Virus record (IMG/VR): IMGVR_UViG_3300024581_003939
Coordinates: 3,513-67,512 of that record
DNA from: a virus
Direction: 5' to 3' (one strand)
DNA: 64,000 nt
This document shows positions 19,902-61,336 of this stretch, piece by piece. The notes under the pieces were generated by a model, which did not search any database, was not told the origin of the DNA, and was given only the letters and a program-made list of their open reading frames with translations. Made by a program: the position numbers and the translations under genes. Position 1 is the stretch's first letter. The number at the start of each line of letters is the position of its first letter.

Positions 19902-22193
19902 CTAATAGTCTTCTTTTTCTATGCCGAGTTCTTGTAAGATATCTTCGCCCAATGTCCATCTTGGTGGAACTGAAAAATATGCTCTATCTTCTATTTCACT
20001 ATAGACTCTTTTAGCCACCAAATTCTTTTCATCTTCTGGAATTGAGATCGTATATTGATTATCAGGAATTTTTGGGCTTTCTAAGTCTATATATTGTCTT
20101 AGCGGTCTGTAAAGATCAACTAAGTATTGATCATCTGAATACCTTCTATTTAGCAAAAACCCTACGTAACCCATGCACATATTATTTTTAAAGTGGTTTG
20201 CCATTTTTTCTGATATGAAAGGGCTTTGTGAAAGTTTACTAATCAAGGTTTGAAAAACTGAGTTTTTATTGTTTCTCAAATAATTGTTCTTCCATGTGCC
20301 AGCTAACCACTCTAGATCCATTTCTTTAATATAAACGCCTATCATGGCGTCGTTCTTTCCTTTAACTCCCTTAAGAAAACTATTGAATTGTTCCCAGTTC
20401 ATTTGATAAAACTCTGGAAATACTGAAGTAAAAGTCTCTTCTACGTCCTGAACTAGCTTTGGATGAAAGCCTACATGATTAGGATCTCTAGACCCATATC
20501 CGTTAGTTAATTCTTTCTGAACAATTGACAAAGCTATTCCGTCTTTTTGATCTAAGACCGGGATAAGATCTATATTTTCAAAATCAGTTAACGTAAATTG
20601 ATCTGCTCCTTCTTCCATTAAATATCTGAAAGTTTTTAAAACATGCTCAAACCTGGAAGAAACCTCTCTTTCATAAAACTTTTCTTTTAAGTCATCTGAA
20701 GCAGCGCTAAAGTGATCTTTTGGAGAATTTGGAAAGCCGTTATCTAATGATCTTTGTATACCCTCTGGTGATAGAAGTCGACTTTGCAATTCGTGAATTT
20801 TCTGAGTTACTATCGGGTTTAAAGGAATTCTTCTACCATGAGATAATGAAGTTTTTAGGATTCTATTCATTCTAACATCAGTATCGATAACTGTGCCCGG
20901 TCTCATTTGACCGGTCTGGACTAGTCTCTCATCAAGTAACTCATTATATAAATCGAAAAACTTGTAAAATAAATCTTCGCTCATAAGATAACCTTTAAAA
21001 ATTATCACATCAAAGATCAATAAGTCACTAGCAAACATTGAACCACCCATGTTACCGTCAAATATTGCTCTAGTATCTGTTTTTTTTGTTGAAAACTCAT
21101 TGTATATTTTTTCCAATACACTGCGAGTTATAAACTCTACTTTTGGATTGTCGGAATTTGCGCCTCTAATAGTGTCATAAAAAACTCCAGGGTCACTAAA
21201 TAAAATAAATTTCACGACGTCAGGAGACGCACCCTCTAAATTTTTACTTACTTGTTTTATATAGTCACTTTTCGCATCTTTTTCATAATCCTTTATGACG
21301 CTTTTTAGATATAACAAATCTGTTCTTGACCTCTTTAAAGATTCTTTGGCGGGATGATTTGATCCAATTACTTGAGCTTCAGCTGTTAAAGTATTTAGTA
21401 TCTGGTCATAATACTGACCAAACCCACTGTCAGTTCTTAATATTTCTTCTGTCAAACCCTTGTTTGCCGCGTCAACAGATAATCCTCCTTCTATTCCTTC
21501 TAATTGAGGAGAACCGTTAACAAAACCCACACAAATTCGAGAATCATTGTTGTTAAGACAAGCTTCTTGTACAGCTGCATATGCATCATCTGGAGCCCTA
21601 TTATAATCCATTACATAAAAAAGAATTATATCAGAGTCTTCTCTACCTACGTAACTTATGAACATGTTTTGACCAGACCTCTTTGTTGTACACCATGTAG
21701 TTTCAAGTCCGGTGCGATCACATGCGATAGATCCCTGTATAGTCTTAGGCATTAAAATTGTCCATGGGCCTACTGTACCTATAGTGTCTACATGCTCTGG
21801 ATCGTTTATGGGATCTACAGCAGTATTTGATTCTTTTTCTTTTCTACTTTTAATTAGATTGTTTGCTTGATCTACTACGCTCTTGAGGCTTCCTGATGTT
21901 GGGTATGTTTTGACGCTTAAGTTTGTTTCAAATCCGTTGCCTTTGATAATAGACTGAACTTGTGGATCGAAAAAATCTTTTACATAAGATGCCAGATCAG
22001 AAATAGGTTCTGTGCCTCTTGTTTTTTGTATCCATGATAATTGACTAGTGTCTCTGAGACCCTCATTATATGCTGCAAGCAATTCGGGTCGATCTGCTTC
22101 CGGTTGATTATTGATCCAATTTCTTGTTTGTCTATTTTCTAAAAGCAAGTTCTCAAGCAAGATTAATCGCAGTTGTTTTCTTGTAATTTTCAT
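19902..22193 (-). CDS. WCT-motif family protein, paralog A
   Basis: likely start MKITRKQLRLILLENLLLE at 22193; TTWCTTKRSGQNMFISY. Confidence 0.75.
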   Translation of the reverse strand: MKITRKQLRLILLENLLLENRQTRNWINNQPEADRPELLAAYNEGLRDTSQLSWIQKTRGTEPISDLASYVKDFFDPQVQSIIKGNGFETNLSVKTYPTSGSLKSVVDQANNLIKSRKEKESNTAVDPINDPEHVDTIGTVGPWTILMPKTIQGSIACDRTGLETTWCTTKRSGQNMFISYVGREDSDIILFYVMDYNRAPDDAYAAVQEACLNNNDSRICVGFVNGSPQLEGIEGGLSVDAANKGLTEEILRTDSGFGQYYDQILNTLTAEAQVIGSNHPAKESLKRSRTDLLYLKSVIKDYEKDAKSDYIKQVSKNLEGASPDVVKFILFSDPGVFYDTIRGANSDNPKVEFITRSVLEKIYNEFSTKKTDTRAIFDGNMGGSMFASDLLIFDVIIFKGYLMSEDLFYKFFDLYNELLDERLVQTGQMRPGTVIDTDVRMNRILKTSLSHGRRIPLNPIVTQKIHELQSRLLSPEGIQRSLDNGFPNSPKDHFSAASDDLKEKFYEREVSSRFEHVLKTFRYLMEEGADQFTLTDFENIDLIPVLDQKDGIALSIVQKELTNGYGSRDPNHVGFHPKLVQDVEETFTSVFPEFYQMNWEQFNSFLKGVKGKNDAMIGVYIKEMDLEWLAGTWKNNYLRNNKNSVFQTLISKLSQSPFISEKMANHFKNNMCMGYVGFLLNRRYSDDQYLVDLYRPLRQYIDLESPKIPDNQYTISIPEDEKNLVAKRVYSEIEDRAYFSVPPRWTLGEDILQELGIEKEDY

Positions 22194-22194
22194 T

Positions 22195-22812
22195 TTACCA
22201 CCAAGTATATTTTGACTTTCCACCAAACAAGTGCGGGTAGCGTCCAATACGACACGCCCAATATCCTGCCTTGGTTTTATCTTTTTTATCTTCACAGTTG
22301 TGACGTGCAGCAAAAGATTTTCTACGAGCCGGATCTTTAAGGCCGACTGACATTCCTTTCGCGCCAAAAGATACTTTCTTGACATTTCCTGTCTTAGGAT
22401 TTTTTACATATACGTAGAACTTCTTGCTACCGCCTCGCTTTGGTTTATTTAATTCGACTTTTTTACCTTGATAATAAGACCCAGACTTTTTTTTATTTTT
22501 TTTCTTTCTCTTTCTTTTTTCATCTAGATTATCTGAGGCCTCGATAGATTCATCCAGTTCAGCAGGGATAGGGTAATCAAGGGGAACAAACCCGCCATCA
22601 TATTCTCCGTATTCTCCTATGTCCGACGTTAACAAATCATGATCCCAGTCATCGACGTTTATCAAGCCTTTGACGTAGGCTTTTTTTGCTTCTAAAATAA
22701 AAGAAAAGAAAGACTGAGAACCCGGTCTATAGACACTTTCTCTAATAGGTAAATCATTATCAATATGATAATTCATCCCTTCAGATAATAAAAAAGACAT
22801 ATATTTCTCCAC
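22195..22812 (-). CDS. hypothetical phage protein with basic RRKSFAARHNC...YWAC domain
   Basis: leader MEKYMSFLLSE; His/Cys-containing basic C-terminal domain. Confidence 0.65.
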   Translation of the reverse strand: MEKYMSFLLSEGMNYHIDNDLPIRESVYRPGSQSFFSFILEAKKAYVKGLINVDDWDHDLLTSDIGEYGEYDGGFVPLDYPIPAELDESIEASDNLDEKRKRKKKNKKKSGSYYQGKKVELNKPKRGGSKKFYVYVKNPKTGNVKKVSFGAKGMSVGLKDPARRKSFAARHNCEDKKDKTKAGYWACRIGRYPHLFGGKSKYTWW

Positions 22813-22854: not shown

Positions 22855-24570
22855 TTAAATGAGCCTATGGTCTAAAGCAAACGTAAATCCATTTTCATAA
22901 CACCACTCAACAAATCCTTTTTTTATGTATCTGTTGCTTTCTATGTAATCTATAATTGAACCTGCTGTAAATGTCTGACCATATACTGGGACTCTTTCAC
23001 TGTCTTCGGGAAACCACATGGCAGGTTCACCACTCATATAGTCGTAGACGTCCTCAACTCTATCGCCGCCTTTTGTGCCGCCGTCGTCAGGACTGTAGAG
23101 TAAAGCAAAACCTGATTCAAATAAAATATTTGCTATATAAACACTTAACATCACTTTAAAGTCTCTACTAAAATTCCCATTCCAATGGCGATATAAATCG
23201 CTTCGCTCTTCGAAAAAATAAACAAGATACTGCTGAAAATCACTATCTTCAAATACTTCTCCGTAGGTCCCAGTGTTACCATCCGAGACAATACTTTCCA
23301 TTTCTTTAGCGAGTTCAGATGCAATTTCTTCTGCTTGCAAATAAATTGTGACAGGAACAGCTTTTTCCAAAACGTTGGATCCTTTGCAGAATCTTAAATC
23401 TGACGAATCTGATGGTAGTCCTGCGAGATCTCTAAAATATATTTCTTTTTCCTCTATGTATTTAGAATTTTGATAAACCATTGCATATCTTTGAAGTACA
23501 ACTTTGTTATTACTGGCAATTGCATCATCTAACTTTTTAATATCTTTTTCAGAAACTAGTGTTTCTTCAGCTATGAATTGATTTAATTGATTAGCGGGGT
23601 TAGTGAATATATCAATAATTAATTTTTTATCTTCTTCTTGTGTATCATCTTTTAAATAAGTCGATTTAAAAACATCAAGCATAGTTGAAGTCAGATCATA
23701 AACAACATCTTTTGACTTTCCACGCATCTCAACATTATAAAGCAGAGGATTCTTCATCATTTCTAGTGCTTTTTTCTTTGCCGGATGATGTCCACCCAAG
23801 CTTTTAGCATTTTCCTCAACAATTCTAATGATGTTGTTGCCTAAATCATTCCCGACAATTGACAAAAATCTAGATTTAGTAAGACCAGCGTTTCTACCGT
23901 CAACAACTATACCACCTCCACCTGCTCCTTCTCTAACCGGAAAATTAACTTTACCTTGCATGGTTCCTAGAGAAAAATGAGTCAAAGATTTATTTTCATC
24001 TTGTGCGTTTTTCTTTTTTAGATAGTAAAGAATTGCATCTCCGCTGAGAACATAATTGTAAAAAAGATTATTTCCTGCGCCTGGAATTGCTGTGCACCAC
24101 GATGTACCTTGCCCAATTGTACAAGAAGCTTCTCTCGTATGAGGTAAATAAAGAGTCCATGTATCATCTTCGTATAAAATGTCAGCCTCACTAACTAGTT
24201 GACTTTCTTCCAAAAATCCTCTTGACAAACTGACAGCGATGTTAATGTCTCCAGGAGATGTGTAGCTTTGCAATGTTGACGGCGCGCCTCGCCTTTTTAG
24301 ACCGGCTTCATTTTGCTTCAAAGACTTAATTGAAGCAACTATATCTTCTATTGGTTCTTCAGAAGCTGCGCCTTCTGGGGTTATAAAATATTTTGCAATC
24401 CACAAAAGCTCGGGTTTCTGCAGCTTGTGAGGTTTTTCTGATGCAATTCTTATTTGTTCTATTTTTTCAGGGTCGGTAAGCCCAACTTCAGACGCAACAT
24501 TGTCATGCAATGCCTCGTTTAATAAGTAGCTTTCAATTATAACCTTGAGCTGTTTTTTAGTTATTTTCAT
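22855..24570 (-). CDS. WCT-motif family protein, paralog B
   Basis: MKITKKQLKVIIESYLLNE; TSWCTAIPGAGNNLFYNY. Confidence 0.75.
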   Translation of the reverse strand: MKITKKQLKVIIESYLLNEALHDNVASEVGLTDPEKIEQIRIASEKPHKLQKPELLWIAKYFITPEGAASEEPIEDIVASIKSLKQNEAGLKRRGAPSTLQSYTSPGDINIAVSLSRGFLEESQLVSEADILYEDDTWTLYLPHTREASCTIGQGTSWCTAIPGAGNNLFYNYVLSGDAILYYLKKKNAQDENKSLTHFSLGTMQGKVNFPVREGAGGGGIVVDGRNAGLTKSRFLSIVGNDLGNNIIRIVEENAKSLGGHHPAKKKALEMMKNPLLYNVEMRGKSKDVVYDLTSTMLDVFKSTYLKDDTQEEDKKLIIDIFTNPANQLNQFIAEETLVSEKDIKKLDDAIASNNKVVLQRYAMVYQNSKYIEEKEIYFRDLAGLPSDSSDLRFCKGSNVLEKAVPVTIYLQAEEIASELAKEMESIVSDGNTGTYGEVFEDSDFQQYLVYFFEERSDLYRHWNGNFSRDFKVMLSVYIANILFESGFALLYSPDDGGTKGGDRVEDVYDYMSGEPAMWFPEDSERVPVYGQTFTAGSIIDYIESNRYIKKGFVEWCYENGFTFALDHRLI

Positions 24571-24935
24571 TTGAGATATCTCCTGCTAAACTTTTTAATT
24601 GACTCGAGTGACTCTAAAATTACTATTTTTATCTCATTGACTTCCATCACGTTCTTCATTTTATGACGTGCAGAATCAGTCCAGTAACCTTTCACCTCAA
24701 TATATGTATCGTATTCGGGTAGATAAAAATCAGGAATGTAGTTTCTTTTTCTTCCGCTTTTTGAAAAATACTTAAGCTTCATATCTTCACTACGGTTCCA
24801 TGCTATTTTAAGATGATCTAGGCGCTCAGCCATCGCGACCTCCCAGGTACTGTCCATGAGAACTTTACTTCCATCTTTTCTTTCGTATAACGACTGCTTA
24901 CTCCACAGTTTTTTCTTTTTCTTTTTCCTAGTCAT
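24567..24935 (-). CDS. PD-(D/E)xK endonuclease (TnsA-N/T7 endonuclease I-like)
   Basis: STWE...YIPDFYLPEYDTYIEVKG. Confidence 0.75.
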   Translation of the reverse strand: MTRKKKKKKLWSKQSLYERKDGSKVLMDSTWEVAMAERLDHLKIAWNRSEDMKLKYFSKSGRKRNYIPDFYLPEYDTYIEVKGYWTDSARHKMKNVMEVNEIKIVILESLESIKKFSRRYLK

Positions 24936-25390
24936 TAAGTCGAATAATACCAGTCACTACCTTCAGTCGTGGGTAAAACTATATTATCTGCATTAACTGT
25001 TATGTAACCTGCATCCAACAAGTCTTGTAACATTAGTTGGACATGATCTTCTGTGACTGGGTCATCAACATTACCGTCAGGGCTATTCGACCAACTATAA
25101 ACTGATGAAACAAAATCTGTAGCCCTAGAGACGACAGTATCGATATGTTCTCCTGGATTAACATCCCATGCAGGGTCAGCATTAGTTTCGATAAAATCAA
25201 ATAAATCTTTCTTACTTTCTTCATAGTGAGTATGACTTCTTAAACCTTCTTCAATTTCTGCTCTTTGCAATTGTAATTGGTGTGTACCTAATGCAATTTG
25301 TATTGCGTCACGATCTAAAGGACTACTAGGCGCAAACTTGAACTTGGCTTCCGCTATTAATTGTCTTAATTGTCTTCTTGTTATTTTCAT
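24935..25390 (-). CDS. hypothetical protein with virion-type leader
   Basis: MKITRRQLRQLIAE. Confidence 0.7.
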   Translation of the reverse strand: MKITRRQLRQLIAEAKFKFAPSSPLDRDAIQIALGTHQLQLQRAEIEEGLRSHTHYEESKKDLFDFIETNADPAWDVNPGEHIDTVVSRATDFVSSVYSWSNSPDGNVDDPVTEDHVQLMLQDLLDAGYITVNADNIVLPTTEGSDWYYST

Positions 25391-25826: not shown

Positions 25827-26450
25827 ATGGCAAAAATTAAAAATATGGGTCAATCAACAGTCAGATTTAATGAAGGTGTAATAATAAGAGGCAAAGCCGA
25901 TAATGAAGATCATTCATTAATTGTGTCTGGAAGTGCTGTGATAAATAGCATAACCGGTTCTTTGCATGGCTCTTCTTTAATGACCCAAGAAGATAGATAC
26001 GGTTTTCCAGTCGTTGGAGGAATATTTGAAATAGATCAAGGCGTTTTTCAAAATCCTAGTACTAGTTACAATCCAATATACTTCCCTTCAGACGACTCCT
26101 TTGTTGAAAAAGTGGCACCTAACTCATCTAATTACTTTATTGCACCTTTTGATGGAGAGCTTATCAAAATTCAAATCAGATCAACAACTGACTTTAGCAC
26201 AAAGTTTTTAACTGCATCTCTTCATTTGGCATCCAATTCTTCAAATGCTTATAATTCTTCTCCAGCATCGTCAGTCGTTATTAACGGCCTTAAATCAAAT
26301 GAAACACATACATTTGATTTTATGAGTGTGTCAGGAAATTCATTTAGCGAAGGCCAGATATTTGGTTTTAGTCTAGGACTATCAGGAGGTTACGCGGGTA
26401 ATGAAACAATACACTTTACGACAACCATAAGATATAATCCGTATAGTTAA
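25827..26450 (+). CDS. putative beta-rich structural (fibre/collar-like) protein
   Basis: LIVSGSAVINSITGSLHGS; Ser/Gly/Thr-rich; preceded by ATAATTA and AAGGAG. Confidence 0.45.
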   Translation: MAKIKNMGQSTVRFNEGVIIRGKADNEDHSLIVSGSAVINSITGSLHGSSLMTQEDRYGFPVVGGIFEIDQGVFQNPSTSYNPIYFPSDDSFVEKVAPNSSNYFIAPFDGELIKIQIRSTTDFSTKFLTASLHLASNSSNAYNSSPASSVVINGLKSNETHTFDFMSVSGNSFSEGQIFGFSLGLSGGYAGNETIHFTTTIRYNPYS

Positions 26451-26971
26451 ATATTGCTACCCATGAAATCATAAAAGGGATGCATTATGTTCCCTCTTTT
26501 CTTTTTGTGTTTGTATCCTAGCGAGTGTCCAAGTTCATGCGCTAGCAAAAGATAATAATTGTGCGTACCTTCTTTAAAGGTAATTGATGCTGACTGAATA
26601 GAAACCAAATCGGTTTTTGTAGCAGTCGTTGCCAGAACATTATTTTCTATCGGTCTAGCATGCAAAGAATATTCATTCCTCAGAATAATAAAACCTTCCA
26701 CAAATTCATTTTTATTTTCGCATACTTCTTCGATATAATCGTACTCATAAAATAAAAACTTCTCTCCGTTCTCTTCCCAAAATTTTGTTGCATGTCTCAA
26801 AACTGATCGATCTAGTTCACCTCTAGTACAATTAACAACTATTGGTGGTGTATTCCAATAAAAAGGCTTTTTAGAAAGAGTAATGTAAGCTTTTTTTACA
26901 AAAAGACCAAGTGCAAATCCTGCAATTAAAGAAAAAAGAATTTGTTTTTTGTTTTTTAGAAGGTGATTCAT
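26447..26971 (-). CDS. matrixin/M10-like zinc metallopeptidase with N-terminal TM
   Basis: HELGHSLGYKH and Met-turn NIMHP. Confidence 0.8.
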   Translation of the reverse strand: MNHLLKNKKQILFSLIAGFALGLFVKKAYITLSKKPFYWNTPPIVVNCTRGELDRSVLRHATKFWEENGEKFLFYEYDYIEEVCENKNEFVEGFIILRNEYSLHARPIENNVLATTATKTDLVSIQSASITFKEGTHNYYLLLAHELGHSLGYKHKKKRGNIMHPFYDFMGSNI

Positions 26972-28563
26972 TGCCCACAACCTAAAACAGAATAGTCTAT
27001 CTGGATTGTTTTACCTGTCTCTGGAACATGACTAACATCAAAAAGAACAGTGTTTCTATAAGAATCGTAAGACCAGTCTGTTTCTGGTACAGAGTGACCA
27101 TTAACGTAAACTGTTATTGAGTCGACGTTAACATTTTCTTTGTCTAGTTCAAATTCTGACTTAAGCGAAACGTCTCTAGCAAGATCTTGCATTTGAAGTC
27201 CCCAGTCTGAAGCACATATTGAGTACCAACTCCCATTATAGCGTTGCGTTAATTCATAATATCCTGCACCAAATTCTATATTTCTGTTATAAAGAGAAAA
27301 TATTGTGCATCCAGCAGGATGATCTCCAATAACTGCAAACTGTCTGTGCTTAGTCACGTCACTCTTGATATTGTCAAAAAAATTTAAATAGCTTGACCAC
27401 CCATTATTACTGTAATCTTTTTCATCAGAAATGTATACAATTACAAGAGTTGCCGCCTCTCTAATAAATGTTGATAAAGGATCATTGGACATATTAAACA
27501 AAAGATGACGAACCATTTCAACTCCTTTTTCTTGACCTGACCCAGTTACTCCAATCCCAGATATTAGTGATTCAGACCAATAAACAGGGTCGTGATAACT
27601 AGAGTCAATCCATGAATATCCGTTTTCTGTTATTAGATAATGTGAGTCTGTTGTAATAAAACCTAAGTGATAATCGATACCTGTCAATAAAAAAATGTTT
27701 AAAAATGTGGACATTTGATTTTGAAGTTCGTTTTGAAATGGATGCATTGACCCAGAATTGTCGACAACGAAAATAATATCTAAAGGATCAGAGCTGTCTT
27801 GTACCCAAGATTCTGAAAACCATTGTTCGTCTTTACCTACGCCTGTCTGGCTTAGTACTTTTTCAGGAGTCAGTGGGTCATTACTGTAAATTGTTAACTC
27901 GCTATTGTCGTCTAATATATCATTAGGTACATAATCAATTAAAAGATCAGTTGATTCACCCGGAATCAATTCCGCAGGAATGATAAAATTAGCACCATAA
28001 GTAACAGTAATTTCTTGAGGTTGGGTGACCATTTGAGCAATATTACTAATTGTTAATGCCATGTTCCCCACGTTTGTGATCGTTATAACTTCTAGCATTT
28101 CACAACCAATACTTACCTCTCCAAAGTCAATTGTATCTACGGATGTCTGGATAACTGGTGCGTCACCTACACCAGCTACTGATATCTGCACTAAATCTTC
28201 ATCACTGTCATTTGTAGTTAATGTTATTTCTGACTCATTAACTTCATGTGTAATAGGTGAATAATAAACGTTGAAGTCGACAACATCACCCGGTTGTACT
28301 GTATATGTTTCTAAGAGATCATCGTCTAAAGAAAATCGACCTTCAGGTAGAACCGGCCTGTCAAATGACAATTCTCTATCTCCTGCGTTAATAACTGCAA
28401 AAGTCTTGAAGCCGGTTTCTGAAGATACATCAACATGACCAAAGTCAATCGCTGATGGGTATACAACAAGTTCCGGCTCTGTCTGAATTGTTTGTTTAAG
28501 TGCGTAGTCTGTACAAGAACACAACAATAGAATTAAGTTTATAAACATAAAAAATCTCCGCAT
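26968..28563 (-). CDS. lipoprotein with tandem Ig-like (ASH/choice-of-anchor D-like) domains and a vWA domain
   Basis: lipobox LLLCS-C; repeated IDFGxV...NxGxxxL; MIDAS DNSGS, ITTD, ISDE. Confidence 0.75.
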   Translation of the reverse strand: MRRFFMFINLILLLCSCTDYALKQTIQTEPELVVYPSAIDFGHVDVSSETGFKTFAVINAGDRELSFDRPVLPEGRFSLDDDLLETYTVQPGDVVDFNVYYSPITHEVNESEITLTTNDSDEDLVQISVAGVGDAPVIQTSVDTIDFGEVSIGCEMLEVITITNVGNMALTISNIAQMVTQPQEITVTYGANFIIPAELIPGESTDLLIDYVPNDILDDNSELTIYSNDPLTPEKVLSQTGVGKDEQWFSESWVQDSSDPLDIIFVVDNSGSMHPFQNELQNQMSTFLNIFLLTGIDYHLGFITTDSHYLITENGYSWIDSSYHDPVYWSESLISGIGVTGSGQEKGVEMVRHLLFNMSNDPLSTFIREAATLVIVYISDEKDYSNNGWSSYLNFFDNIKSDVTKHRQFAVIGDHPAGCTIFSLYNRNIEFGAGYYELTQRYNGSWYSICASDWGLQMQDLARDVSLKSEFELDKENVNVDSITVYVNGHSVPETDWSYDSYRNTVLFDVSHVPETGKTIQIDYSVLGCGQ

Positions 28564-33698: not shown

Positions 33699-34495
33699 TA
33701 TAATCCTCCAAATGTTTGAACGTATTTGTTCCAAGTTTTTTCTTTGAGCATGGACTTAAAGTCCATTTCATCGAATATGTCATAAAGCTCTTCAAAGTCT
33801 GCAACACCTTCATGCTTTTCCATTTCTTCCATGTTATCAGAGAAGTCGACAAGGCGGATTAGATGAACATTACGCTCAAATATCTGTTGTCTAATAGGGT
33901 CTTTTGCAAAGTACTCAGAAAGTAACTCTGGAGAACGCACCAGTTTGTCTGCTGTTTTATCACCACAACCTGGGATGCCGGCAATATTATCAGTTGCATC
34001 TCCTCGTAACGCTTTCCAAGTTACGTAATCATAGTCAGGTGTCTCAATCATTTTCTTTTTTACTGGATTGTAAATGTCACAGTTATCAAACACATTTAAC
34101 AATTGATAAAAATCAGAATCAGAAGAAATAATCGTGCAATCATCCCCAGCATCACAATGTTGCTTCACCAAAGTCGCAATCGTATCATCACATTCTAACT
34201 TAGGATGACGAACAGTTGTAATAGGAAAACATGCCTTAACAATAGAAATAATTTGTGCTTTTTGCTCATGAAAGTGTCTATCGTTATTTGAACGATTTGC
34301 CTTGTAAGCGTCATTTAGCTGCATTCTAAACTCTGGATTCCCCTCCAAGACAAAATAAACTTTGTCAGGTGAGAACTTTTCTACAAGAGGACGTAAGCCT
34401 CGAAAAAAGTTGTACACAACGGGATAGTCTCCTTTGAGATATCCGCTTCGTGCACGATAAATTAAGTTATATGCGTCTAATAAAAGTACTTTCAC
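33698..34495 (-). CDS. 5'-3' exonuclease / flap endonuclease (Pol I N-terminal, T4 RNase H-like)
   Basis: LLDAYNL, ECDD, SSDSDF, GDATDNIAGIPGCGDKTA. Confidence 0.9.
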   Translation of the reverse strand: MKVLLLDAYNLIYRARSGYLKGDYPVVYNFFRGLRPLVEKFSPDKVYFVLEGNPEFRMQLNDAYKANRSNNDRHFHEQKAQIISIVKACFPITTVRHPKLECDDTIATLVKQHCDAGDDCTIISSDSDFYQLLNVFDNCDIYNPVKKKMIETPDYDYVTWKALRGDATDNIAGIPGCGDKTADKLVRSPELLSEYFAKDPIRQQIFERNVHLIRLVDFSDNMEEMEKHEGVADFEELYDIFDEMDFKSMLKEKTWNKYVQTFGGL

Positions 34496-34950
34496 TGAGG
34501 AACTCCTGCGTTTTTTAGAGAATCAACTGACATTTTGCCGAATTTTCCATTCCCTAGGTCTACTTTTATTATATCTCTTTCTTTTTCTGGTTGCACTTTT
34601 ACATCATTAACATCATTCTTTTGATCTTCTTTGTCTTGTTTTACTGGAGTTTCTACATGACTGTGACTAAAGGCGTCGCTTGCGATTAACCCTGCTTGTT
34701 TAATCATTTCATTAATTGCATTTTTTGCATTGGCAACCATGTGGTTTCTGACTTCGTCCGTGCTTTTAAAAATCTGACCTTTGATTTTTTTGATATCTAC
34801 AGAAGAAGACTTACCATCCGGGAGTTTAATAATGTAAGTTTTTTCTTTTCCGTGAATCGTTGTTCTTATTACTTCTTCGTAGACTTGAATGGGCAATACT
34901 TTGTTACCCGACATTAAATACAAAATTTGCCCAACCTGATATGAATCCAT
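34492..34950 (-). CDS. hypothetical protein
   Basis: 152-aa ORF, GAGG RBS. Confidence 0.6.
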   Translation of the reverse strand: MDSYQVGQILYLMSGNKVLPIQVYEEVIRTTIHGKEKTYIIKLPDGKSSSVDIKKIKGQIFKSTDEVRNHMVANAKNAINEMIKQAGLIASDAFSHSHVETPVKQDKEDQKNDVNDVKVQPEKERDIIKVDLGNGKFGKMSVDSLKNAGVPQ

Positions 34951-35028
34951 TTTTCACCTCTGTGTTTTTAATGTATTCTATACTAGGATTGGGCAAATTT
35001 ATAATAATAAATTGTGTATATTTATTTG

Positions 35029-35538
35029 TTACCGCTTAAAGCCGAAACCAGGAAGAAAACTTCCTTGATGTGTGTAGCCTTTTTTACTTCTAGTAGGCTT
35101 TTTGCTACCGTAAACCCATTGACCAGAGATCTGCATTTCGTCAAAAACGTTTTGAACTTCTTCGTCAATAACTTGTCTAAGTTGTGCTTCAAACATCTTT
35201 TGCTTTCTTTCACGACGCTTAGACTCAGCTAATTGTTTTCTTCGCTTGTTTTCTTGCATAATTCTCTTAGCACGACGCAATTCTTGAACGAGCATGACTT
35301 CGTCAATTTCAATCATCTCATCCATGTCATCTTCGTCGTCTTCTTCATTCATGAAGGCAATATCAGCCATTTCGCTCATGTCGTCTTCTTCATCCATTCC
35401 GCATGAAGCACCTTCTTCCATTTCTTCCATTTCAGCAACTTCTTCTTCTTGATGTTTCCCTTCATTTAAAGAGCGACGAGAAGAATGATCTTCTGGAAGT
35501 CCGGCTAATTTACTTAATCTATTGAAATTAATACGCAT
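35029..35538 (-). CDS. acidic/coiled-coil protein (scaffold or core-like)
   Basis: acidic centre; SLNE, LAE and MFE sites; QLRQVIDEE. Confidence 0.6.
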   Translation of the reverse strand: MRINFNRLSKLAGLPEDHSSRRSLNEGKHQEEEVAEMEEMEEGASCGMDEEDDMSEMADIAFMNEEDDEDDMDEMIEIDEVMLVQELRRAKRIMQENKRRKQLAESKRRERKQKMFEAQLRQVIDEEVQNVFDEMQISGQWVYGSKKPTRSKKGYTHQGSFLPGFGFKR

Positions 35539-35588
35539 GTGTATTCCTCCACAAATTTATTATCACATTATAAGTATCTCTAAAAACT

Positions 35589-35948
35589 TTAATTATTATC
35601 TTTAGTGATATTTTTTCTAATGTTTTCAGTTATTTTTGCGCCTGCAGCAGCTGCTTCTCGCAAAGGCTGTAGTCCTAAACATTTTCTGACTTTGTTGTAT
35701 GTGTCTTCGTCTAGTCCGCTTTTTAAAACAGCCATATCAGCATATTGGTGCAAATCCATCTCCATGATAGGGACGGGATCACCCACTTCGTTAGGCTCCA
35801 TTTCTCCTGTCTCTCTACTCTCAAATATAAAAAGCATATTAGGCATTAGTTCACCGTTAGGAACCATAATAAATGGAATATTTCCGCTGACTCCATCGTC
35901 ACTTTCTTCATACATGATTTCAGGAATCCAATTGTTTTTATTGCTCAT
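35589..35948 (-). CDS. hypothetical protein
   Basis: 119-aa ORF, GAGGT RBS. Confidence 0.6.
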   Translation of the reverse strand: MSNKNNWIPEIMYEESDDGVSGNIPFIMVPNGELMPNMLFIFESRETGEMEPNEVGDPVPIMEMDLHQYADMAVLKSGLDEDTYNKVRKCLGLQPLREAAAAGAKITENIRKNITKDNN

Positions 35949-36001
35949 ACATCACCTCGTTTAAAACATATAATTTTATTTTAAACAATCGATTTGTTAA
36001 C

Positions 36002-37045
36002 TTAAAATCCAAATCGATTAGTAATTCCTGTCTTAGACATTAAATCATCAATTGTATCATCAAGAAAGTCTTTAGCACTACTAGGTGAGCCGAAACTATT
36101 CTTAAGATGAGGTGTTAGGGCTTCTAAGACTTGATCTAGTTTTGTAGCACGACGCGGATCTTCTTCAGGTTTTATTGAAACGTTTCGTCGCATAATATTC
36201 ATTATCGAAGAAAAACTATCTGAGTTTTCTTTAATTCCTGCTTTTAAAGATGAAAGCTTGTCTTTAGCTGTCGATATATCAGCATCGACATCATTTGCAA
36301 ATTTTACATATTCTCTATTAGCAAATATCTCAAACATATCTAGTTCAAAGCTGTCTAGATTCATTTCTTTTACATCATCATTATCTTGCAAGCTGCGTCT
36401 AGTTGAAGAATCAACAATGTCATTTGAAACTAAATTATCAGAAAATAGTTTTGCAAAGGAATTTTCAGGAACAGAAATTGAATTATCTTCGTCTTCTTTG
36501 TTATTATCTATATTGTTATTGTTATCGTTTTTGTCTATTCCCTTACGTGCTGCTTCAACGTCAAATTTGGCTCCAAAAAATGCAGCAATTGCAGCCAGAA
36601 AGTCTATTACAAATGTCTTAATCGCATCACAATCATTTTTTGTAAGTCCAAGTGCTGACGATGCTAAAAATCCAGCACCCATACCTAGTAGTTCAAGAGC
36701 AGGATGTGCTGCCAAATCTTTAAAAATTCTATTTGAGAGCGATCTTTCTTCGAGATCTTTGAGTTTTTCCTCTGGGCTTTTAAAAAAACTAAAAAAGGAA
36801 TTTCCACTCTTGGCAGCATCTTTTTCTTTGGCTATAGCTTTCTTTAATTTTTCTTTACTATTTTCTCTAATAGCTTCTGAAAAATTCCAAAATGCTGCAG
36901 GAATTCCACTTAAGTCACAGAATTCTGTTGTTGAGCCTCCTGATATCTTCCCCATTCTAAACTCATTGAGTTGGGATGATTCCAGTTCTCGTTTAAGAAG
37001 TTTTCTTCTAATCTCTCTTCTTAACTGTTCTTCTTTTATTATCAT
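36002..37045 (-). CDS. hypothetical protein with leader ending QLNE
   Basis: MIIKEEQLRREIRRKLL...QLNE. Confidence 0.65.
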   Translation of the reverse strand: MIIKEEQLRREIRRKLLKRELESSQLNEFRMGKISGGSTTEFCDLSGIPAAFWNFSEAIRENSKEKLKKAIAKEKDAAKSGNSFFSFFKSPEEKLKDLEERSLSNRIFKDLAAHPALELLGMGAGFLASSALGLTKNDCDAIKTFVIDFLAAIAAFFGAKFDVEAARKGIDKNDNNNNIDNNKEDEDNSISVPENSFAKLFSDNLVSNDIVDSSTRRSLQDNDDVKEMNLDSFELDMFEIFANREYVKFANDVDADISTAKDKLSSLKAGIKENSDSFSSIMNIMRRNVSIKPEEDPRRATKLDQVLEALTPHLKNSFGSPSSAKDFLDDTIDDLMSKTGITNRFGF

Positions 37046-37740: not shown

Positions 37741-38101
37741 GATCGATCTCCGTTTCTTTTTTAATAATTATTCTTACAGCAAGAAAATTACTATTGATCT
37801 TGCTAAAGTTTGCTATTCTTATATCCCTGCAGTTAATTCCTAAGTACTTTAGATCCCAGACAAATATATCTAAGGTATCACAGGTCAGTAGATTGTGCAA
37901 GGTCTTGTAACTGTTTGTGTCAATCTTTAAGTCAACATTAATATCGTTAGAATCCATTTCAATATTGTCAATTTCTACAATATTGCCTTCTGAAACAATT
38001 GAAAGAGGTGGGTAATCGCTTACGTCATTGTAGATGCTAGCATCTTCAAGTTCCTTCTCAGTTATTTTACCTTTTAGACTTTTGCTAACAAAAAACGACA
38101 T
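37733..38101 (-). CDS. hypothetical protein
   Basis: MSFFVSKSLKGKI start just after the upstream stop. Confidence 0.6.
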   Translation of the reverse strand: MSFFVSKSLKGKITEKELEDASIYNDVSDYPPLSIVSEGNIVEIDNIEMDSNDINVDLKIDTNSYKTLHNLLTCDTLDIFVWDLKYLGINCRDIRIANFSKINSNFLAVRIIIKKETEIDHA

Positions 38102-38102
38102 T

Positions 38103-41092: not shown

Positions 41093-41132
41093 CTATACAA
41101 GATTAATAACTTAATTAATTATCACAGACAAA

Positions 41133-41891: not shown

Positions 41892-41894
41892 GTG

Positions 41895-42164: not shown

Positions 42165-42172
42165 AGTATATC

Positions 42173-42442: not shown

Positions 42443-42443
42443 A

Positions 42444-44024: not shown

Positions 44025-44966
44025 TTATTGAATTTGTTCTATGGACAAGTAAGGTATGCCATATTTTTGGCTAACAGTTTCGATTGCGTTATTGAGCGCA
44101 ATTGAATGTTCATCTTGCCTTGTTTTTAAGTCTTCAACATCGATAAAGGCATCAATTTGCCAGTTATCAATAATGAACTCGTTCCAATCACCTTGTCTCC
44201 ACATGAAGTTGTGGAAAAGCTTTTTACGCCCGGGATCATTAATTCTCATATAACTTTCTTCATCAAGAATGATATTGTTAGTTATTTTTTCAAGCCATGT
44301 TCTTAGCCCACCTAAAATAAAAGATAAAGAAAAGCCTCCTTTTCTTTTTATATTTTCGATAGGATCAACATATTCCGGAAACTTAGGAACGCCTGAGGCG
44401 GCATATTTTTCTTCGTCTTCAGCATTCGGCTTTCTCCCAGAGAAAAGATTGTCATTTGCTGCCAGCGTCGTGTATCCTGACATCTTAACAGCAACTTTAT
44501 ATCTTGCTTGTTGATTTTTTCCATACCATGCTTGCTTCGCCAATTCAACATCTTTTATGTTATTTCTAAATTCTTCAGGAAGATAACCTACAGTTGAAAT
44601 TTCATTTTTTTTATTTGAATTAACTAAAGCTTCTAGCTCTGCCAATGGATCTTTTCTAGTATCTAGTGGCGTAAAATGAACTTTAATTACGCTATCTATA
44701 AAAGCTCTGTCAACATGCGCAGACCACGCTTGTTTAACTATGCTTGCAACTCCTCGTGTCATACTTCCAAAAAGCTGAACCAAGAAAGATTCACCGCCTT
44801 CTTTGTAGTACTGCTTAAGCCTATCTCTTAAGTCGTCTTTAAAATCATCAACGCGTTGGTTGCCTGTTCTTAGAAATCTTTGTGTTCCAAAAACTTCGTT
44901 TAACTCGCCATCTTGCTTAAGATAGTTTTCTATAATTGTTTTTAAATTTCTCTTAGATATCTTCAT
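44025..44966 (-). CDS. hypothetical protein with virion-type leader
   Basis: MKISKRNLKTIIENYLKQDGELNE. Confidence 0.7.
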   Translation of the reverse strand: MKISKRNLKTIIENYLKQDGELNEVFGTQRFLRTGNQRVDDFKDDLRDRLKQYYKEGGESFLVQLFGSMTRGVASIVKQAWSAHVDRAFIDSVIKVHFTPLDTRKDPLAELEALVNSNKKNEISTVGYLPEEFRNNIKDVELAKQAWYGKNQQARYKVAVKMSGYTTLAANDNLFSGRKPNAEDEEKYAASGVPKFPEYVDPIENIKRKGGFSLSFILGGLRTWLEKITNNIILDEESYMRINDPGRKKLFHNFMWRQGDWNEFIIDNWQIDAFIDVEDLKTRQDEHSIALNNAIETVSQKYGIPYLSIEQIQ

Positions 44967-53335: not shown

Positions 53336-55756
53336 TTAATATTCTAAGAATTTATTAAACTTGTTTGGCCAAGGAACACCGTTCTGTTGAGAATAACTTT
53401 GCCATGTCGCCTTTCCTTTGAGGACATAGCTCGCCATGTTATAGAGTGTAAGTATCCATTCATTATAGCTATCTTCTCCGTCTTCTGGTTCGTCTTCATA
53501 AGTCTGCATATATGCAATAATTTCTGATAAATAGTTGTCAATATTTACAGGTTTACCGTAAGACTTGTCAAAGAGTTTTGCAAAATTAGATTCTGTTCCA
53601 CCATGAATATCTTCTTCTAACAGCTGCCCGATCTCCATATACTCGTCAGAGAAATACTCGCTCATGTCACTGACAATTGTCGGGTGGACAAACAAAGATA
53701 CGTATAAAGCTAGCCTTTCTGTTTTGGACTGCTGCTCAGTCAGGTTTTCTGTGTTCGTCTCTCCGTGCAGCCTATCTTTCTGGAGTTTTAAAATAGTTGG
53801 AGCAAATAAACTAGGTTCAGTTCTAAAAGAAAGTGTCTTTATGCCTTGCTTGTTTTCATAGTTATTAGAATTAAAAAGTACTTCTCTGTGAATTCCTCTT
53901 TCATAAGTCTTGATCATATAAACAGGGTCTAGTTTAAGATTAGACATGAAGAAATGTCCTTTTGCTACATACGCTAAAGTGTCAATCAAAGTATCAAACG
54001 ATTCTTTAGAAAGAGACTGAAAAAAGCTATTATCAGATAATCTAATTAGACTGTTTGCTGCATATGAAACCTCTGATATGCTTTCACCCGCACCATTGGT
54101 TGAAGTTTCAAGATCTCCGGAAGAATTTGTCGGAGTCATTATAAAATTGTCACTAATTGCTTCATCAACAATTTCTTTTGGGCATTCTGGGTGTGCAATT
54201 AAATTAGGTATATTTCTTCCAGTGCGGTCTGTGTATCTATCATTGCTAAATTTTTCATAAAGTTTAGTTATGCTTTCTGGGTTTAGCATGTCTTTCTTTT
54301 TAACAATAGAGTGAAGTAAAATAGCTCTTTGCGGATCTCTAGAGTGATAATCTGTTGCATACGTATAATTATCATTGACTACATCATCAACCATTTCACT
54401 AAAGAGTTCAGGAGAGATTGGTCTTACAGCACTGTTGGATCTTAACATGTTCCACATGTAAAACCCAGATGCTTTACCTCCAGAAGACTGCTTTTCATAA
54501 TGATAAAGATCAGTTATTAGACCGGAAGGAAGTGGAAGATTGTATGACTTAATTAATTCGTCTATATCTCCTGTTTGGATAGCAGCTTGAGTTGCTCTTG
54601 CTGTCTTCCCAAATCTTATACCTACCCCTCTAATTCTTTTATGAGGATCTTTGATCATTTCAATAATAATGTCTTCGTTTTGTGTATGAACTGCAATTTC
54701 TCTGGCTTCTTGAACAAAAAGTGCAATATCATTTTCAGACTGGTGTGCTTCTCTCATTGCCTGATATTGCTCAAGACTGATCGATTTATAATATTCCTTT
54801 GGGTTAATTTCCTTTCTTTCTGGATTGTTTTTAACATCATTTTCAATCAAACTAAAGAGTCGCTGACCAATAATGTTTATTACACTCTCTTTAGAAATAG
54901 GTTGATTATTTCCGTCAACAGTTGCGTGACTACCGTCTTTTAAGGCAACATAGTCTCCTTTCTTTATAAAACTTAAACAAAATTTTCTTTCTGGGGCATT
55001 TGGGTCGTAGTCATTAACACGTGTCAAGTAATACATGTGCAAGTTCATTTTTTGATGGTAGTTAAGAAACATGTTTCCAGCACCATCAATTGTGGTGCAC
55101 CAACTCATCTCACCTAATTGTGCTTTTTCTTCAGGCGAGTTTGGATTAAGATACTCATAATTAGGACCCATTCTTCCTAAAGCTATTGATCCCTTGTAAG
55201 TTTTAGGATAAGCAACAAAGTAAGGATTGCCAGATGATGGCATTGCAACCACTTCGAATTCTGAAGTTCGCCCATTGATTCCATCTGTAATTACACGATT
55301 AAGAATATCTGATCTTTTTCCTACCCCTGATCCACTTTCTATGTATTGCATTGCTTCGTCATATGTTAGTGTTGTGTTGTCAGGCTGACTGACGTCAATT
55401 TTTGGAAGGATGTCGATCATTTGACCACCGGTACCTCTCATAGCCCTAGGCGGTAAATCACCTCTGCGCGCGTTGCTAACAATTTTGTTGAGTATTTCTT
55501 CGCCACCTTGTGATATGTCACCTAGACTATGTCCTTGATTTGCACTAAGCGTGTTAAAGAGTATTTTTCCCATAATAGGGTCGTTAAAAGGGTATACCCA
55601 GTCTTTGTCAAAGACGTATCTATTGAAATCGCTCTGTGTGATCTGACCTTTTTGTATAAAATGATTAAAGGCTTTTTTCTTTATTTCAAAGATAAGCTCA
55701 GGTCCTCTTAAATAATTTTCAATTACTAACTTTAATTGTCTTTTTGTAATTTTCAT
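53336..55756 (-). CDS. WCT-motif family protein, paralog C
   Basis: MKITKRQLKLVIENYL; MSWCTTIDGAGNMFLNY. Confidence 0.75.
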   Translation of the reverse strand: MKITKRQLKLVIENYLRGPELIFEIKKKAFNHFIQKGQITQSDFNRYVFDKDWVYPFNDPIMGKILFNTLSANQGHSLGDISQGGEEILNKIVSNARRGDLPPRAMRGTGGQMIDILPKIDVSQPDNTTLTYDEAMQYIESGSGVGKRSDILNRVITDGINGRTSEFEVVAMPSSGNPYFVAYPKTYKGSIALGRMGPNYEYLNPNSPEEKAQLGEMSWCTTIDGAGNMFLNYHQKMNLHMYYLTRVNDYDPNAPERKFCLSFIKKGDYVALKDGSHATVDGNNQPISKESVINIIGQRLFSLIENDVKNNPERKEINPKEYYKSISLEQYQAMREAHQSENDIALFVQEAREIAVHTQNEDIIIEMIKDPHKRIRGVGIRFGKTARATQAAIQTGDIDELIKSYNLPLPSGLITDLYHYEKQSSGGKASGFYMWNMLRSNSAVRPISPELFSEMVDDVVNDNYTYATDYHSRDPQRAILLHSIVKKKDMLNPESITKLYEKFSNDRYTDRTGRNIPNLIAHPECPKEIVDEAISDNFIMTPTNSSGDLETSTNGAGESISEVSYAANSLIRLSDNSFFQSLSKESFDTLIDTLAYVAKGHFFMSNLKLDPVYMIKTYERGIHREVLFNSNNYENKQGIKTLSFRTEPSLFAPTILKLQKDRLHGETNTENLTEQQSKTERLALYVSLFVHPTIVSDMSEYFSDEYMEIGQLLEEDIHGGTESNFAKLFDKSYGKPVNIDNYLSEIIAYMQTYEDEPEDGEDSYNEWILTLYNMASYVLKGKATWQSYSQQNGVPWPNKFNKFLEY

Positions 55757-59392: not shown

Positions 59393-59397
59393 ATAAG

Positions 59398-59452
59398 AAA
59401 ACTCCTGGTATTATTTTTGTTATAGTATACCACAAGGAGTTTAAGATTACAT
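59398..59452 (-). promoter_or_regulatory. dnaE promoter ATGTAA-N17-TATACT with RBS-covering hairpin
   Basis: -35 at 59447-59452, -10 at 59424-59429; arms AAACTCCT-TGT-GGTAT and ATACC-AGGAGTTT. Confidence 0.72.
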
Positions 59453-59527
59453 TTTTAACTACTTATTAAACCTTGTTATCAGAAGCACTACCGTAAATAA
59501 ATTTGCCCTTATATAGTTTTCGCTTCC

Positions 59528-61336
59528 TTAAAACAGAAATTTCAAAGTGTATTTTTTTCTTTCACTTAAGTTTCTTTTTTCTAAATTATCTCTGGCACTA
59601 TCTCTTACTTGTTCGTCTCTATCGTTTAGTAATTCTTTTAAAGTTTGAACATTTGTATTTTGATTTTCTGCAACATTTTGCCTTACCCATTTATCACTGT
59701 CTCCTGACATTATTTGCAAAGTTTCAGATCGGGTTGACGGGTTTGAAGCGACAAATGATCTAACTCTTTTGCTGGTATCGTATGATAGCTTGTCTATGAC
59801 ATCTGGAGTTGCTGATTCATTCATTGCTATAAATACCCTTACCCATTCAACAGTATCGTCAGTCATTTTAAGCAAAGTCGTCGGGCCTGTTGATTCATTT
59901 TGAGCAATTGCTGACCTTACACTCCTATCAGCATCATCTGATAAGATATCTAACAATCTGGAGTCTACTGGATCTTTTTGTGCTATAGACTGTCTTACGC
60001 CACTTGATCGATCGCTTGTTAAGTTTTTTAATATCTCAAAAGGCGTCAATTCATTATACACGACTGATCTTCTTACATGTTCTGAAGTGTCTTTTGATAA
60101 CTTTTCTAGAAGTTGTAAATTTTCTAAATTTCTTGCAACTACTGATCTTACAGTTTCATCTTTATCATTTGATAGTCTTTCTAGTATTTCTGACTTAGAT
60201 GGCATGGATCTGTGTCCAATATTTTTTACTGCATTTAATCTTACAACAGGTGACGGATCATTTGAAAACTTGTTTAGTAAAACCTCATCATCAGTTCTTA
60301 ATGCAACATTTTGTCTTACGCTTTCGCTCTTGTCGTTTGACAAATAAGCTAATACTTCCGGTGAAACATTTCCTTGATCGAGAACCGAACTTATAAAATC
60401 ACTTTTTTCACTTTCACCGTAATCTTTGATGACAGATATTAAAACTTCTAAGTTTTCTGCGGACTTTTCTAATATTTCAATTGCTGGACTTATGCCGTTG
60501 TACTTTTGAACAGTTGAATTAATTGCGCTCATAATATCGTTATAGTACTGTCCTAGCGCTTTTGAAAAAGATGCTTGTGTCAGCCCTTTGTTTGATGCAT
60601 CGACAGATATACCTCCGTCTTGACCATGAAGCTCAATTTGACCCTCCACGAAACCTAAAGACATTCTAGAACAATTATTAGCCATGCAAGGATTTTCTTG
60701 ATATATCTGTGGGTCGTCAGGCTTTCTATTATAGTCCATTATGTAAAATAGCATCATGGACTCTCCGTGTGCACCGGCATAAGAATAAAATAAGTTTTGC
60801 CCATTTCTTTTTGTTGTGCACCAAGTTGTGGACTGAGGGTTGTCAAAGTCACAAGAAACTGACCCTCTGACTGTCTTAGGCAGAATAACGGTCCACGGGC
60901 CAAATTTGCCAACAATTTCTAGATCAGTACCGTTCTCTAACGAAACCATGGTTTTTCTGTCGTGCGAGCTTAAATCAACATTGACACCCTGTATAAAGTT
61001 GTCTAGCTCTTGAATTGAACTAAAGGACGAGAGGTTTAAGTAAGATAATATGCTAGGGTCATTAAGCCTCTTTGACTTAACCCTAACTTTTTGTTTAAAT
61101 GCTTCAGTTTTAAATTCTAAAACTGACTGAATTATGTGAAATAGGTCAAAGTTGTCTCTAATTTTTTGAATCCAGGAGAAGTCTTGAGTTTTAAGACCGC
61201 TGGCTTCGGCATTCAAGTATATTCTCTTATCTTCTTCAGAAATGTTTAAATTGTTAATATAATCTCTATCTCTTCTTCCTTCAGAAATAAGATAATTTTC
61301 TATTAATGTGTTCAATTGTTTTTTTGATATTTTCAC
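59528..61336 (-). CDS. WCT-motif family protein, paralog D, with LRV/HEAT-like repeats
   Basis: MKISKKQLNTLIENYLISE; TTWCTTKRNGQNLFYSY; C-terminal repeats. Confidence 0.78.
   Translation of the reverse strand: MKISKKQLNTLIENYLISEGRRDRDYINNLNISEEDKRIYLNAEASGLKTQDFSWIQKIRDNFDLFHIIQSVLEFKTEAFKQKVRVKSKRLNDPSILSYLNLSSFSSIQELDNFIQGVNVDLSSHDRKTMVSLENGTDLEIVGKFGPWTVILPKTVRGSVSCDFDNPQSTTWCTTKRNGQNLFYSYAGAHGESMMLFYIMDYNRKPDDPQIYQENPCMANNCSRMSLGFVEGQIELHGQDGGISVDASNKGLTQASFSKALGQYYNDIMSAINSTVQKYNGISPAIEILEKSAENLEVLISVIKDYGESEKSDFISSVLDQGNVSPEVLAYLSNDKSESVRQNVALRTDDEVLLNKFSNDPSPVVRLNAVKNIGHRSMPSKSEILERLSNDKDETVRSVVARNLENLQLLEKLSKDTSEHVRRSVVYNELTPFEILKNLTSDRSSGVRQSIAQKDPVDSRLLDILSDDADRSVRSAIAQNESTGPTTLLKMTDDTVEWVRVFIAMNESATPDVIDKLSYDTSKRVRSFVASNPSTRSETLQIMSGDSDKWVRQNVAENQNTNVQTLKELLNDRDEQVRDSARDNLEKRNLSERKKYTLKFLF
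59583..60363 (-). repeat. about ten 24-26 aa LRV/HEAT-like repeats (protein level)
   Basis: repeat unit LxxLSxDxxxxVRxxVAxN. Confidence 0.8.

Follow-up and report, generated by a model that had tools for sequence, protein, structure and literature searches.

What do four large proteins of an uncultivated marine phage have in common, and how could they serve the virus? The question is raised by a stretch of DNA of 64,000 nucleotides (positions 3,513 to 67,512 of the IMG/VR virus record IMGVR_UViG_3300024581_003939; hereafter the window), in which four open reading frames (ORFs), all on the minus strand, encode proteins built around a Trp-Cys-Thr (WCT) motif, here named paralogs A (19902..22193), B (22855..24570), C (53336..55756) and D (59528..61336). 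The four ORFs were confirmed at the coordinates given in an earlier note on this DNA, which had read them as injected effectors with swappable C-terminal domains and a possibly catalytic cysteine. Overall, that interpretation is partly supported by our results. The explanation that we favour, tentatively and with somewhat less than even confidence, is that these proteins are leader-tagged effectors packaged in the phage head and released at infection, in which a constant module would be combined with tails that choose the partner.

Four paralogs built on one module

The likeness among the four proteins goes far beyond chance, and they are true paralogs. When the ten window ORFs that open with a common leader (described below) were compared by BLASTP with the first 22 residues cut off, only A, B, C and D were connected with each other, with E-values of 4e-55 (A with D), 7e-12 (A with B), 1e-11 (B with D), 7e-11 (B with C), 5e-6 (A with C) and 2e-5 (C with D). 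Likewise, a family profile of 12 sequences matched only these four frames in the source record (E 1e-66 to 2e-30). This record comprises 72,198 bases and has a CheckV completeness of 22%, which points to a large phage with a genome of roughly 300 kb; the window has a G+C content of ~35% and almost every gene lies on the minus strand. A and D form the nearest pair, as had been proposed, with 37% identity over 316 residues.

The motif by which the family was recognized is real in the alignments, i.e., P-x-T..S...(T/S)WCT...G.N.F..Y...[LM][FY]Y...VD..N, and can be extended to P-x-T..S..(C)...T-x-W-C-T....N-x-F..Y....L-x-Y...S-x-G...G...V-D..N-x-G. While this core motif held, the shared region proved larger than first noted, comprising the leader, the core itself and, between these two, a helical N-domain in which a Trp is conserved (SWIQK / LLWIAK), ~260-300 residues in all. 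Both the homology and this layout of domains were observed directly. Paralog A (763 amino acids) consists of the leader (residues 1-19), the helical N-domain, the WCT core with Cys168 and a helical C-terminal part of ~460 residues; B (571 amino acids) has its core cysteine at Cys159 and an acidic C-terminal part (isoelectric point, pI, 4.4); C (806 amino acids) has Cys220 and a C-terminal part of ~500 residues; and D (602 amino acids, with a GTG start) has Cys173, followed from residue 330 by about ten LRV/HEAT repeats. C also carries a 17-residue insertion directly before WCT, which tends to be misaligned by MAFFT. The longest open frames of A and C begin upstream, at 22385 and 55768, respectively; the starts used here (22193 and 55756) are those that open with the leader.

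A quick maximum-likelihood tree placed B with the proteins P0009, P0028 and P0038 (support 99), D with P0066 and P0124 (99), and A with P0068 and P0076 (86), the last two being likewise 763 amino acids long. A and D fell inside one clade of 20 rows and C formed a long branch. Since A, B and D each have their own orthologs elsewhere, the paralogs are old and have been kept in other phages. B matched 27 other marine-metagenome proteins with 36-65% identity over the core; used alone as the query in a search for related loci, it returned one relative.

A portable leader and its possible link to the virion

The leader that opens all four proteins, (M/V)K-I-(T/S)-(K/R)-(K/R)-Q-L, had been called virion-type in the earlier note. 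With a length of ~20 residues, it reads as a short amphipathic helix that closes with hydrophobic-x-Glu. In the window, ten ORFs open with the pattern (M/V)K(I/L)(T/S)(K/R)(K/R)(Q/N/E/K)L..(I/L)(I/L/V).E, and beyond residue 22 only the four paralogs are related to each other by BLASTP, so that the leader is directly observed to be portable, being shared by unrelated proteins as are the capsid-targeting sequences (CTSs) of phage T4. An unrelated protein of 313 amino acids (44025..44966, minus strand), which opens with MKISKRNLKTIIENYL, illustrates this portability. The other leader-bearing ORFs lie at 24935-25390, 19299-19847, 4301-4744 and 2575-3759, with a looser version at 10696-12327. The leader DNA varies at synonymous sites, which indicates that the constraint acts on the peptide.

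A tag of ~20 residues that many unrelated proteins have in common, with hydrophobic-x-Glu at its end, bears the signature of T4-type capsid targeting as known from the internal proteins and Alt; the T4 sequences are cut after (L/I)-x-E. Candidate protease sites of this form are present, as motifs, in all four paralogs (LLE in A, LNE in B, IFE in C and ISE in D). The feature extends to the wider family: hydrophobic-hydrophobic-x-E-(G/A/S/N) occurs within the first 30 residues in 99 of 141 members, compared with 4.8% of control windows, and this holds whatever the leader sequence.

The octapeptide MKITKKQL was found in IMG/VR in at least 117 stretches, representing at least 94 distinct ORFs of at least 60 amino acids, mostly small and unrelated. 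Among the matches listed, positions 9-16 are also conserved, as [KR]-x-[IL]-[IV]-x-E-E-[LIV], and hydrophobic-x-Glu with its Glu at positions 17-26 occurs in 64%, compared with 20% of control windows. All four large leader-bearing contigs of IMG/VR that were searched encode Peptidase_S77, the prohead protease of the T4 gp21 type, which is weak support given how often large marine contigs come from T4-like phages. Peptidase_S77 is also encoded by two isolated phages that carry the WCT core, Salicola phage SCTP-2 and Pseudomonas phage PA5oct; a third, Caulobacter phage CcrBL9, has none.

For one relative, presence in the virion is on record. The PA5oct protein EST35_0205 contains a WCT core, and its record is annotated as "structural protein" with a note of electrospray ionisation tandem mass spectrometry (ESI-MS/MS). 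In PA5oct, 93 products have been linked to the virion, including 7 "virion-unrelated enzymes", and gp152 has been described as the prohead core scaffold and protease (PMC7318152). Considering the PA5oct virion relative, the leader on unrelated proteins and the occurrence of Peptidase_S77 in leader-bearing contigs, packaging of the four paralogs in the head is, by analogy, plausible.

Variable C-terminal parts and a proposed scheme

The C-terminal parts differ as had been described for D, in which Pfam recognizes the ~ten LRV/HEAT repeats, and for B, which is acidic. Residues 330-600 of D score well above the Pfam cut-offs for HEAT (64.6 bits, cut-off 23.5; E 3e-18), LRV (53.2 bits, cut-off 21.6; E 2e-14) and HEAT_2 (50.1 bits, cut-off 27.7; E 3e-13). 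The tail of C is probably a HEAT/ARM-like solenoid as well, judging from a low-confidence ESM Atlas model whose nearest neighbours are HEAT, importin and LRV clusters (template modelling, TM, scores 0.43-0.55). The C-terminal part of A, described as helical in the earlier account, gave no clear structural look-alike. The term swappable is fair for the wider family, in which the core is fused to LRV/HEAT, LRR_5, WG repeats, pentapeptide repeats or GNAT; within the window it has to be used with more care, as the tails of C and D may both be alpha-solenoids. Between orthologs, identity is 54-67% in the N-terminal module and 23-54% in the C-terminal part, i.e., the tails evolve about twice as fast.

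Based on these data, we propose a theoretical scheme for the action of the family. The leader would be a capsid-targeting or propeptide tag of the T4 kind, which would bring the protein into the prohead and be cut off there by a gp21-type prohead protease. The proteins would then ride in the head together with the DNA and enter the cell at infection, where the constant module of ~260 residues, composed of the helical N-domain and an alpha/beta core, would perform one shared job. The fast-evolving tails, mostly alpha-solenoids of the LRV/HEAT kind, would select different partners. We infer packaging, cleavage and ejection of the four paralogs, partner binding by their tails and any chemistry at the cysteine from the observations above and from the conservation and fold described below.

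A large family with an invariant cysteine

An exhaustive profile search over 1.84 billion representative proteins, with clusters defined at 50% identity, returned 3398 family clusters at E<=1e-3, 439 at <=1e-10 and 86 at <=1e-30. The ESM Atlas clusters of the family are 94-100% viral; one of these, with 714 members, bears LRV/HEAT repeats and another WG repeats. By these sequence searches, the WCT family is very large, unnamed and confined to phages. The core itself found nothing in Pfam, NCBIfam or the PDB sequences, searched with both the proteins and the family profile, and in PHROGs it corresponds to two families of unknown function, matched by B.

The cysteine is kept in homologues, as expected from the earlier note: WCT is present in 149 of the 150 best representatives and in all copies of SCTP-2, PA5oct and CcrBL9. 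The sole Cys-less protein of these 150, the metagenomic P0089, has TTWFTART for TTWCTART through a single G-to-T change, and its Phe is either a natural variant or a sequencing error. The directly observed pattern of conservation, across alignments of 139-145 members, shows P, W, C, T and N as invariant; since the alignment rows were chosen for having WCT, the invariance of W, C and T is partly due to selection. In the numbering of B, W138, S149, T156, F170, Y173, L181, Y183, G202, G206, G219, V223 and N227 are kept in >90% of members, and a second Cys (B residue 150), nine residues upstream of the core Cys, in 89%.

Isolated phages with the core fall into three groups, i.e., SCTP-2, the Pseudomonas jumbo phages PA5oct and Paride, and CcrBL9. 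SCTP-2 has seven copies, six of them clustered at 30-42 kb; the loci noted in its record lie at 28-42 kb and 346.8 kb. The six clustered copies adjoin a sigma-32-like gene and have their own common N-terminus, MK(V/I)(K/T)HITQYLFES(Y/F)KDAQ. The PA5oct/Paride group has a single copy, adjoining the large terminase, and CcrBL9 also has a single copy.

Besides, the family includes giant metagenomic relatives (P0051, P0125, P0151 and P0161) of 1259-1844 amino acids, each matched by the core profile in three to five places; the core has a short form there (…WCTA…, then KYQFHF…FMD) and is fused to BspA-type LRR, WG repeats or GNAT. Three BFVD entries labelled Marseillevirus LCMAC201/202 (A0A481Z016, A0A481YZT2 and A0A481YW50) matched the module with E-values of 1e-6 to 4e-4, and one of these entries has ankyrin repeats. 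Either these are phage contigs binned with giant viruses, or the family extends to eukaryotic viruses.

Predicted fold and the role of the cysteine

AlphaFold2, run on B with the family alignment, gave a confident model, with a predicted local distance difference test score (pLDDT) of 92.0 and a predicted TM score (pTM) of 0.78 for residues 1-290, and a pLDDT of 92.5 and a pTM of 0.89 for the core alone (118-262). In this model, the order of elements in the core is predicted to be a helix, a beta-hairpin, a helix, the WCT loop, a helix, three strands and long helices. The conserved P, W-C-T, N, S, T, two Tyr and several Gly probably make one binding pocket. Foldseek found no match in the PDB at E<=1e-3, neither with the 290-residue model nor with the core alone.

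When compared by VIA-align with 48,161 chains, the core reached a Z of 4.8 at best, and about two thirds of the 50 best rows were GNATs (Z 3.5-4.8, root-mean-square deviation 4-5 A, 85-105 residues aligned). A GNAT fold was not assigned, as these values lie below the level that unrelated models usually reach in the VIA-align calibration, and the likeness is a loose topological one. For the helical N-domain, the best row of the wide VIA-align comparison was NLRP14 (Z 5.3), also below the usual chance level, and no fold was named.

The proposal that the cysteine is catalytic was not borne out: the core lacks a conserved acidic or His column, solved enzyme folds give no match and a Phe replaces the cysteine in one relative. 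Peroxiredoxin-, papain- and E2-type active sites were rejected by eye, their partner residues being missing. As there is no conserved residue able to activate the thiol, we regard catalysis by the cysteine as doubtful, and any activity assigned to the core is a guess, with neither a conserved acidic or His residue nor a solved look-alike to guide it.

Resemblance to PcfJ

The core had also been called loosely PcfJ-like. A remote resemblance to PcfJ was indeed found; membership of PF14284 was not, with no match in the window even at E 10. Zero matches at E-values up to 10 were obtained for the four paralogs, their cores and the six-frame translation of the whole record, and zero at E 10 in SCTP-2, PA5oct and CcrBL9. 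Matches of 16-19 bits, below the Pfam gathering cut-off of 25 bits for PF14284, fell precisely over WCT in P0151 (residues 897-996, E 1e-3) and in the C-terminal copy of P0161 (E 1e-2). The copies that touch Pfam PcfJ are the short-form cores of the giant relatives.

In a Foldseek search of BFVD, the family's own members came first (E 7.5e-8 to 4e-4), the PA5oct "Structural protein" among them, followed by at least 12 phage models named "PcfJ-like protein" with E-values of 2e-3 to 0.3, probabilities of up to 0.97 and TM scores of 0.2-0.28. The PDB searches gave no solved PcfJ structure. For a comparison of sequences, PcfJ domains of Brochothrix phage A9, Lactobacillus phage LP65 and Acinetobacter phage ME3 were used. 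By eye and by hhalign, the two align as W-x-[IVL]-x-x-P ... G ... C-[VT]-A ... Y ... I-L-F, with the WCT cysteine over the invariant PcfJ Cys; the hhalign probability is 4.8% over 41 columns, with a PcfJ profile of only four sequences, and a search for further PcfJ sequences yielded only two proteins.

Judged from these alignments, the WCT core and PcfJ may be distantly related; at present the likeness is a remote resemblance only. We also considered, as a rather improbable extension, that both belong to one superfamily, i.e., an undescribed effector head, with an invariant Cys pocket for some chemistry or ligand and exchangeable repeat tails (LRV/HEAT, LRR, WG, pentapeptide) for aiming, that would be delivered into new cells with mobile DNA, through the jumbo-phage capsid in one case and the conjugative mating channel in the other.

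Weighing the alternative explanations

Several observations weigh against the packaged-effector explanation. The neighbours of the four paralogs are replication and metabolic genes (DnaE, an epimerase, NUDIX and a pyridoxal phosphate, PLP, enzyme) and not a structural block, and Peptidase_S77, a Gp23-type capsid gene and other head genes are absent from the 72-kb record, which covers ~22% of the genome. The WCT core is absent from all four large leader-bearing contigs, and the single family member of PA5oct shares no obvious leader with other PA5oct ORFs. The leader is modelled by AlphaFold2 as a confident helix (pLDDT 93 for the first ten residues), which by itself does not suggest a floppy, removable peptide. 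Moreover, detection by mass spectrometry in a virion preparation is not proof of specific packaging, and with no core column conserved as acidic or His in the 139-145-member alignments and no solved look-alike, the activity of the core is a guess.

The alternative that survives best, which we nevertheless consider unlikely, is that the proteins are structural components inside the head, of the inner-body or core-like kind, that would organise or condense the genome or build the prohead core. The WCT module would then serve assembly or DNA contact, the solenoid tails would be spacers or DNA binders, and the Cys would be structural or linked to the frequent second Cys nine residues upstream. All evidence for packaging applies equally here, and a core that lacks any conserved acid, base or His, gives no match to an enzyme-like fold and has a second Cys (B residue 150) in 89% of members is readily accommodated. 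The phiKZ-type jumbo phages have paralog sets of head-internal inner-body proteins, to which the copy numbers of the WCT family (four in 22% of the genome here, seven in SCTP-2) bear a resemblance, although PA5oct and CcrBL9 have a single copy. Nothing here indicates DNA binding, and tails that evolve about twice as fast, together with the LRR, pentapeptide, WG and GNAT fusions, fit partner recognition in conflict better than a fixed role in the architecture.

It is less likely still, in our opinion, that the proteins never enter the virion and are host-takeover or anti-defence factors made in the cytoplasm after infection, with some other role for the leader, for example to oligomerise the proteins through its helix, to localise them or to stabilise them. 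The genes lie among those for replication and for nucleotide and sugar metabolism, adjoining DnaE, and the fragment has no structural genes, both of which are in line with such a role, as is the confident helix that AlphaFold2 gives for the leader. The position of the genes has less force than it seems, as T4 internal-protein genes likewise lie outside the head gene block. The mass-spectrometry detection in PA5oct would have to be carry-over, and its preparation does pick up non-structural proteins, since 7 "virion-unrelated enzymes" are among the 93 listed products (PMC7318152). What argues against cytoplasmic factors is the leader itself: a tag of ~20 residues common to unrelated proteins and ending in hydrophobic-x-Glu is the T4-type capsid-targeting signature, and it co-occurs with Peptidase_S77 in every large contig searched (4/4).

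Finally, an enzyme that depends on the cysteine, with the C-terminal repeats choosing the host protein or nucleic acid to be modified, seems improbable to us, as the near-invariant Cys (149 of the 150 best representatives and the distant phage copies), its placement by hhalign on the invariant PcfJ Cys (probability 4.8%, 41 columns) and the near-invariant polar residues close in sequence (T160, N168, S149, T156, Y173, Y183 and N227) are set against the lack of a conserved His, Asp, Glu, Lys or Arg for thiol activation, one relative with Phe for Cys, and best structural matches to GNATs at a Z of 3.5-4.8, below the usual chance level.

Genomic setting

An ORF of 205 amino acids (22195..22812, minus strand) lies between B and A and has no match to the WCT family. 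Its stop is one base before the ATG of A, so that both are probably translated as part of one operon. In the region of window positions 26447-28563, the order GroEL, sigma factor, Ig-domain lipoprotein, M10-like peptidase, followed by B, is conserved in a related 67-kb ENA contig, which encodes P0009. There, the B ortholog is directly preceded by a T5orf172/MUG113 gene and is not followed by an A paralog; head genes were not observed on this contig.

A block of ten ORFs at 34492-43070 of the window encodes several acidic proteins and has leader-like N-termini ending in LNE. Scanned as possible head-core genes, they gave zero PHROG matches, and the five that were run against Pfam as well had no match above the threshold. 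As head-core proteins, they would have to be highly divergent.

Significance

Large phages carry many proteins in their heads, very few of them with a known role. Phage proteins with a packaging leader are already known, and so are modular conflict proteins with repeat tails. The libraries and papers searched contain nothing on the WCT family itself, on how large it is, on the absence of a solved relative or on a possible connection with PcfJ. Thousands of sequence clusters are here defined as one family that no curated library names, and the uncharacterised PcfJ domain of plasmids and phages gains possible distant relatives. The layout of tag, constant module and fast-changing tail is typical of host-virus conflict proteins. 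Pseudomonas phages PA5oct and Paride and Salicola phage SCTP-2 offer cultivable entry points. If the leader is indeed a packaging tag, it could become a tool for loading foreign proteins into the capsids of marine T4-like phages, and if the WCT core and PcfJ do form a superfamily, it would represent a modular set of tools, widely distributed, for taking over the cell early or countering its defences.

Comparison with known systems

The PcfJ domain (PF14284) occurs in conjugative elements, Herelleviridae and other large phages and is uncharacterised; our literature search found no functional study of it. By the alignments, this domain and the WCT core both appear to pass from a beta-hairpin that ends in Pro to a helix, from there through a loop holding an invariant Cys to a helix bearing a conserved Tyr, and on to a hydrophobic strand. 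The two also differ: the invariant I-E, R and W columns of PcfJ have no counterpart in the WCT core, while the invariant W, T and N of WCT are absent from PcfJ, which has N/H-C-V. Besides, the PcfJ domain is C-terminal in the three phage proteins examined, whereas the WCT core lies in the N-terminal half.

GNAT acetyltransferases show a loose likeness to the core, which VIA-align superposes over ~90-100 residues, covering the N-terminal 110-130 residues of the GNAT chains, but the core has neither a Foldseek match at E<=1e-3 nor a Pfam acetyltransferase match. In comparison with LRV/HEAT proteins (PF01816, PF02985), D carries the repeats only as a tail, and A and B have no repeat matches.

The T4 internal proteins and Alt resemble the proteins of the window in having a short N-terminal leader, ending in hydrophobic-x-Glu, on unrelated proteins of one phage. 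The T4 CTS has 10 residues, so that the leader described here is about twice as long, and it differs in sequence; its cleavage is predicted from the motif. IPI-III and Alt have no detectable homology to the four paralogs, which are much larger (571-806 amino acids).

Neither PcfJ nor a WCT domain is mentioned in two surveys from the Aravind group, one of polyvalent proteins (Iyer et al. 2017, PMC5512222) and the other of jumbo phages (PMC7824862). Unlike polyvalent proteins, which have several unrelated effector domains, each of the four paralogs has one core and one tail. The metagenomic relatives come closer to that organization, with several core stretches combined with LRR_5, WG or GNAT in 1259-1844 amino acids, and polyvalent proteins and the WCT family are both thought to travel with DNA.

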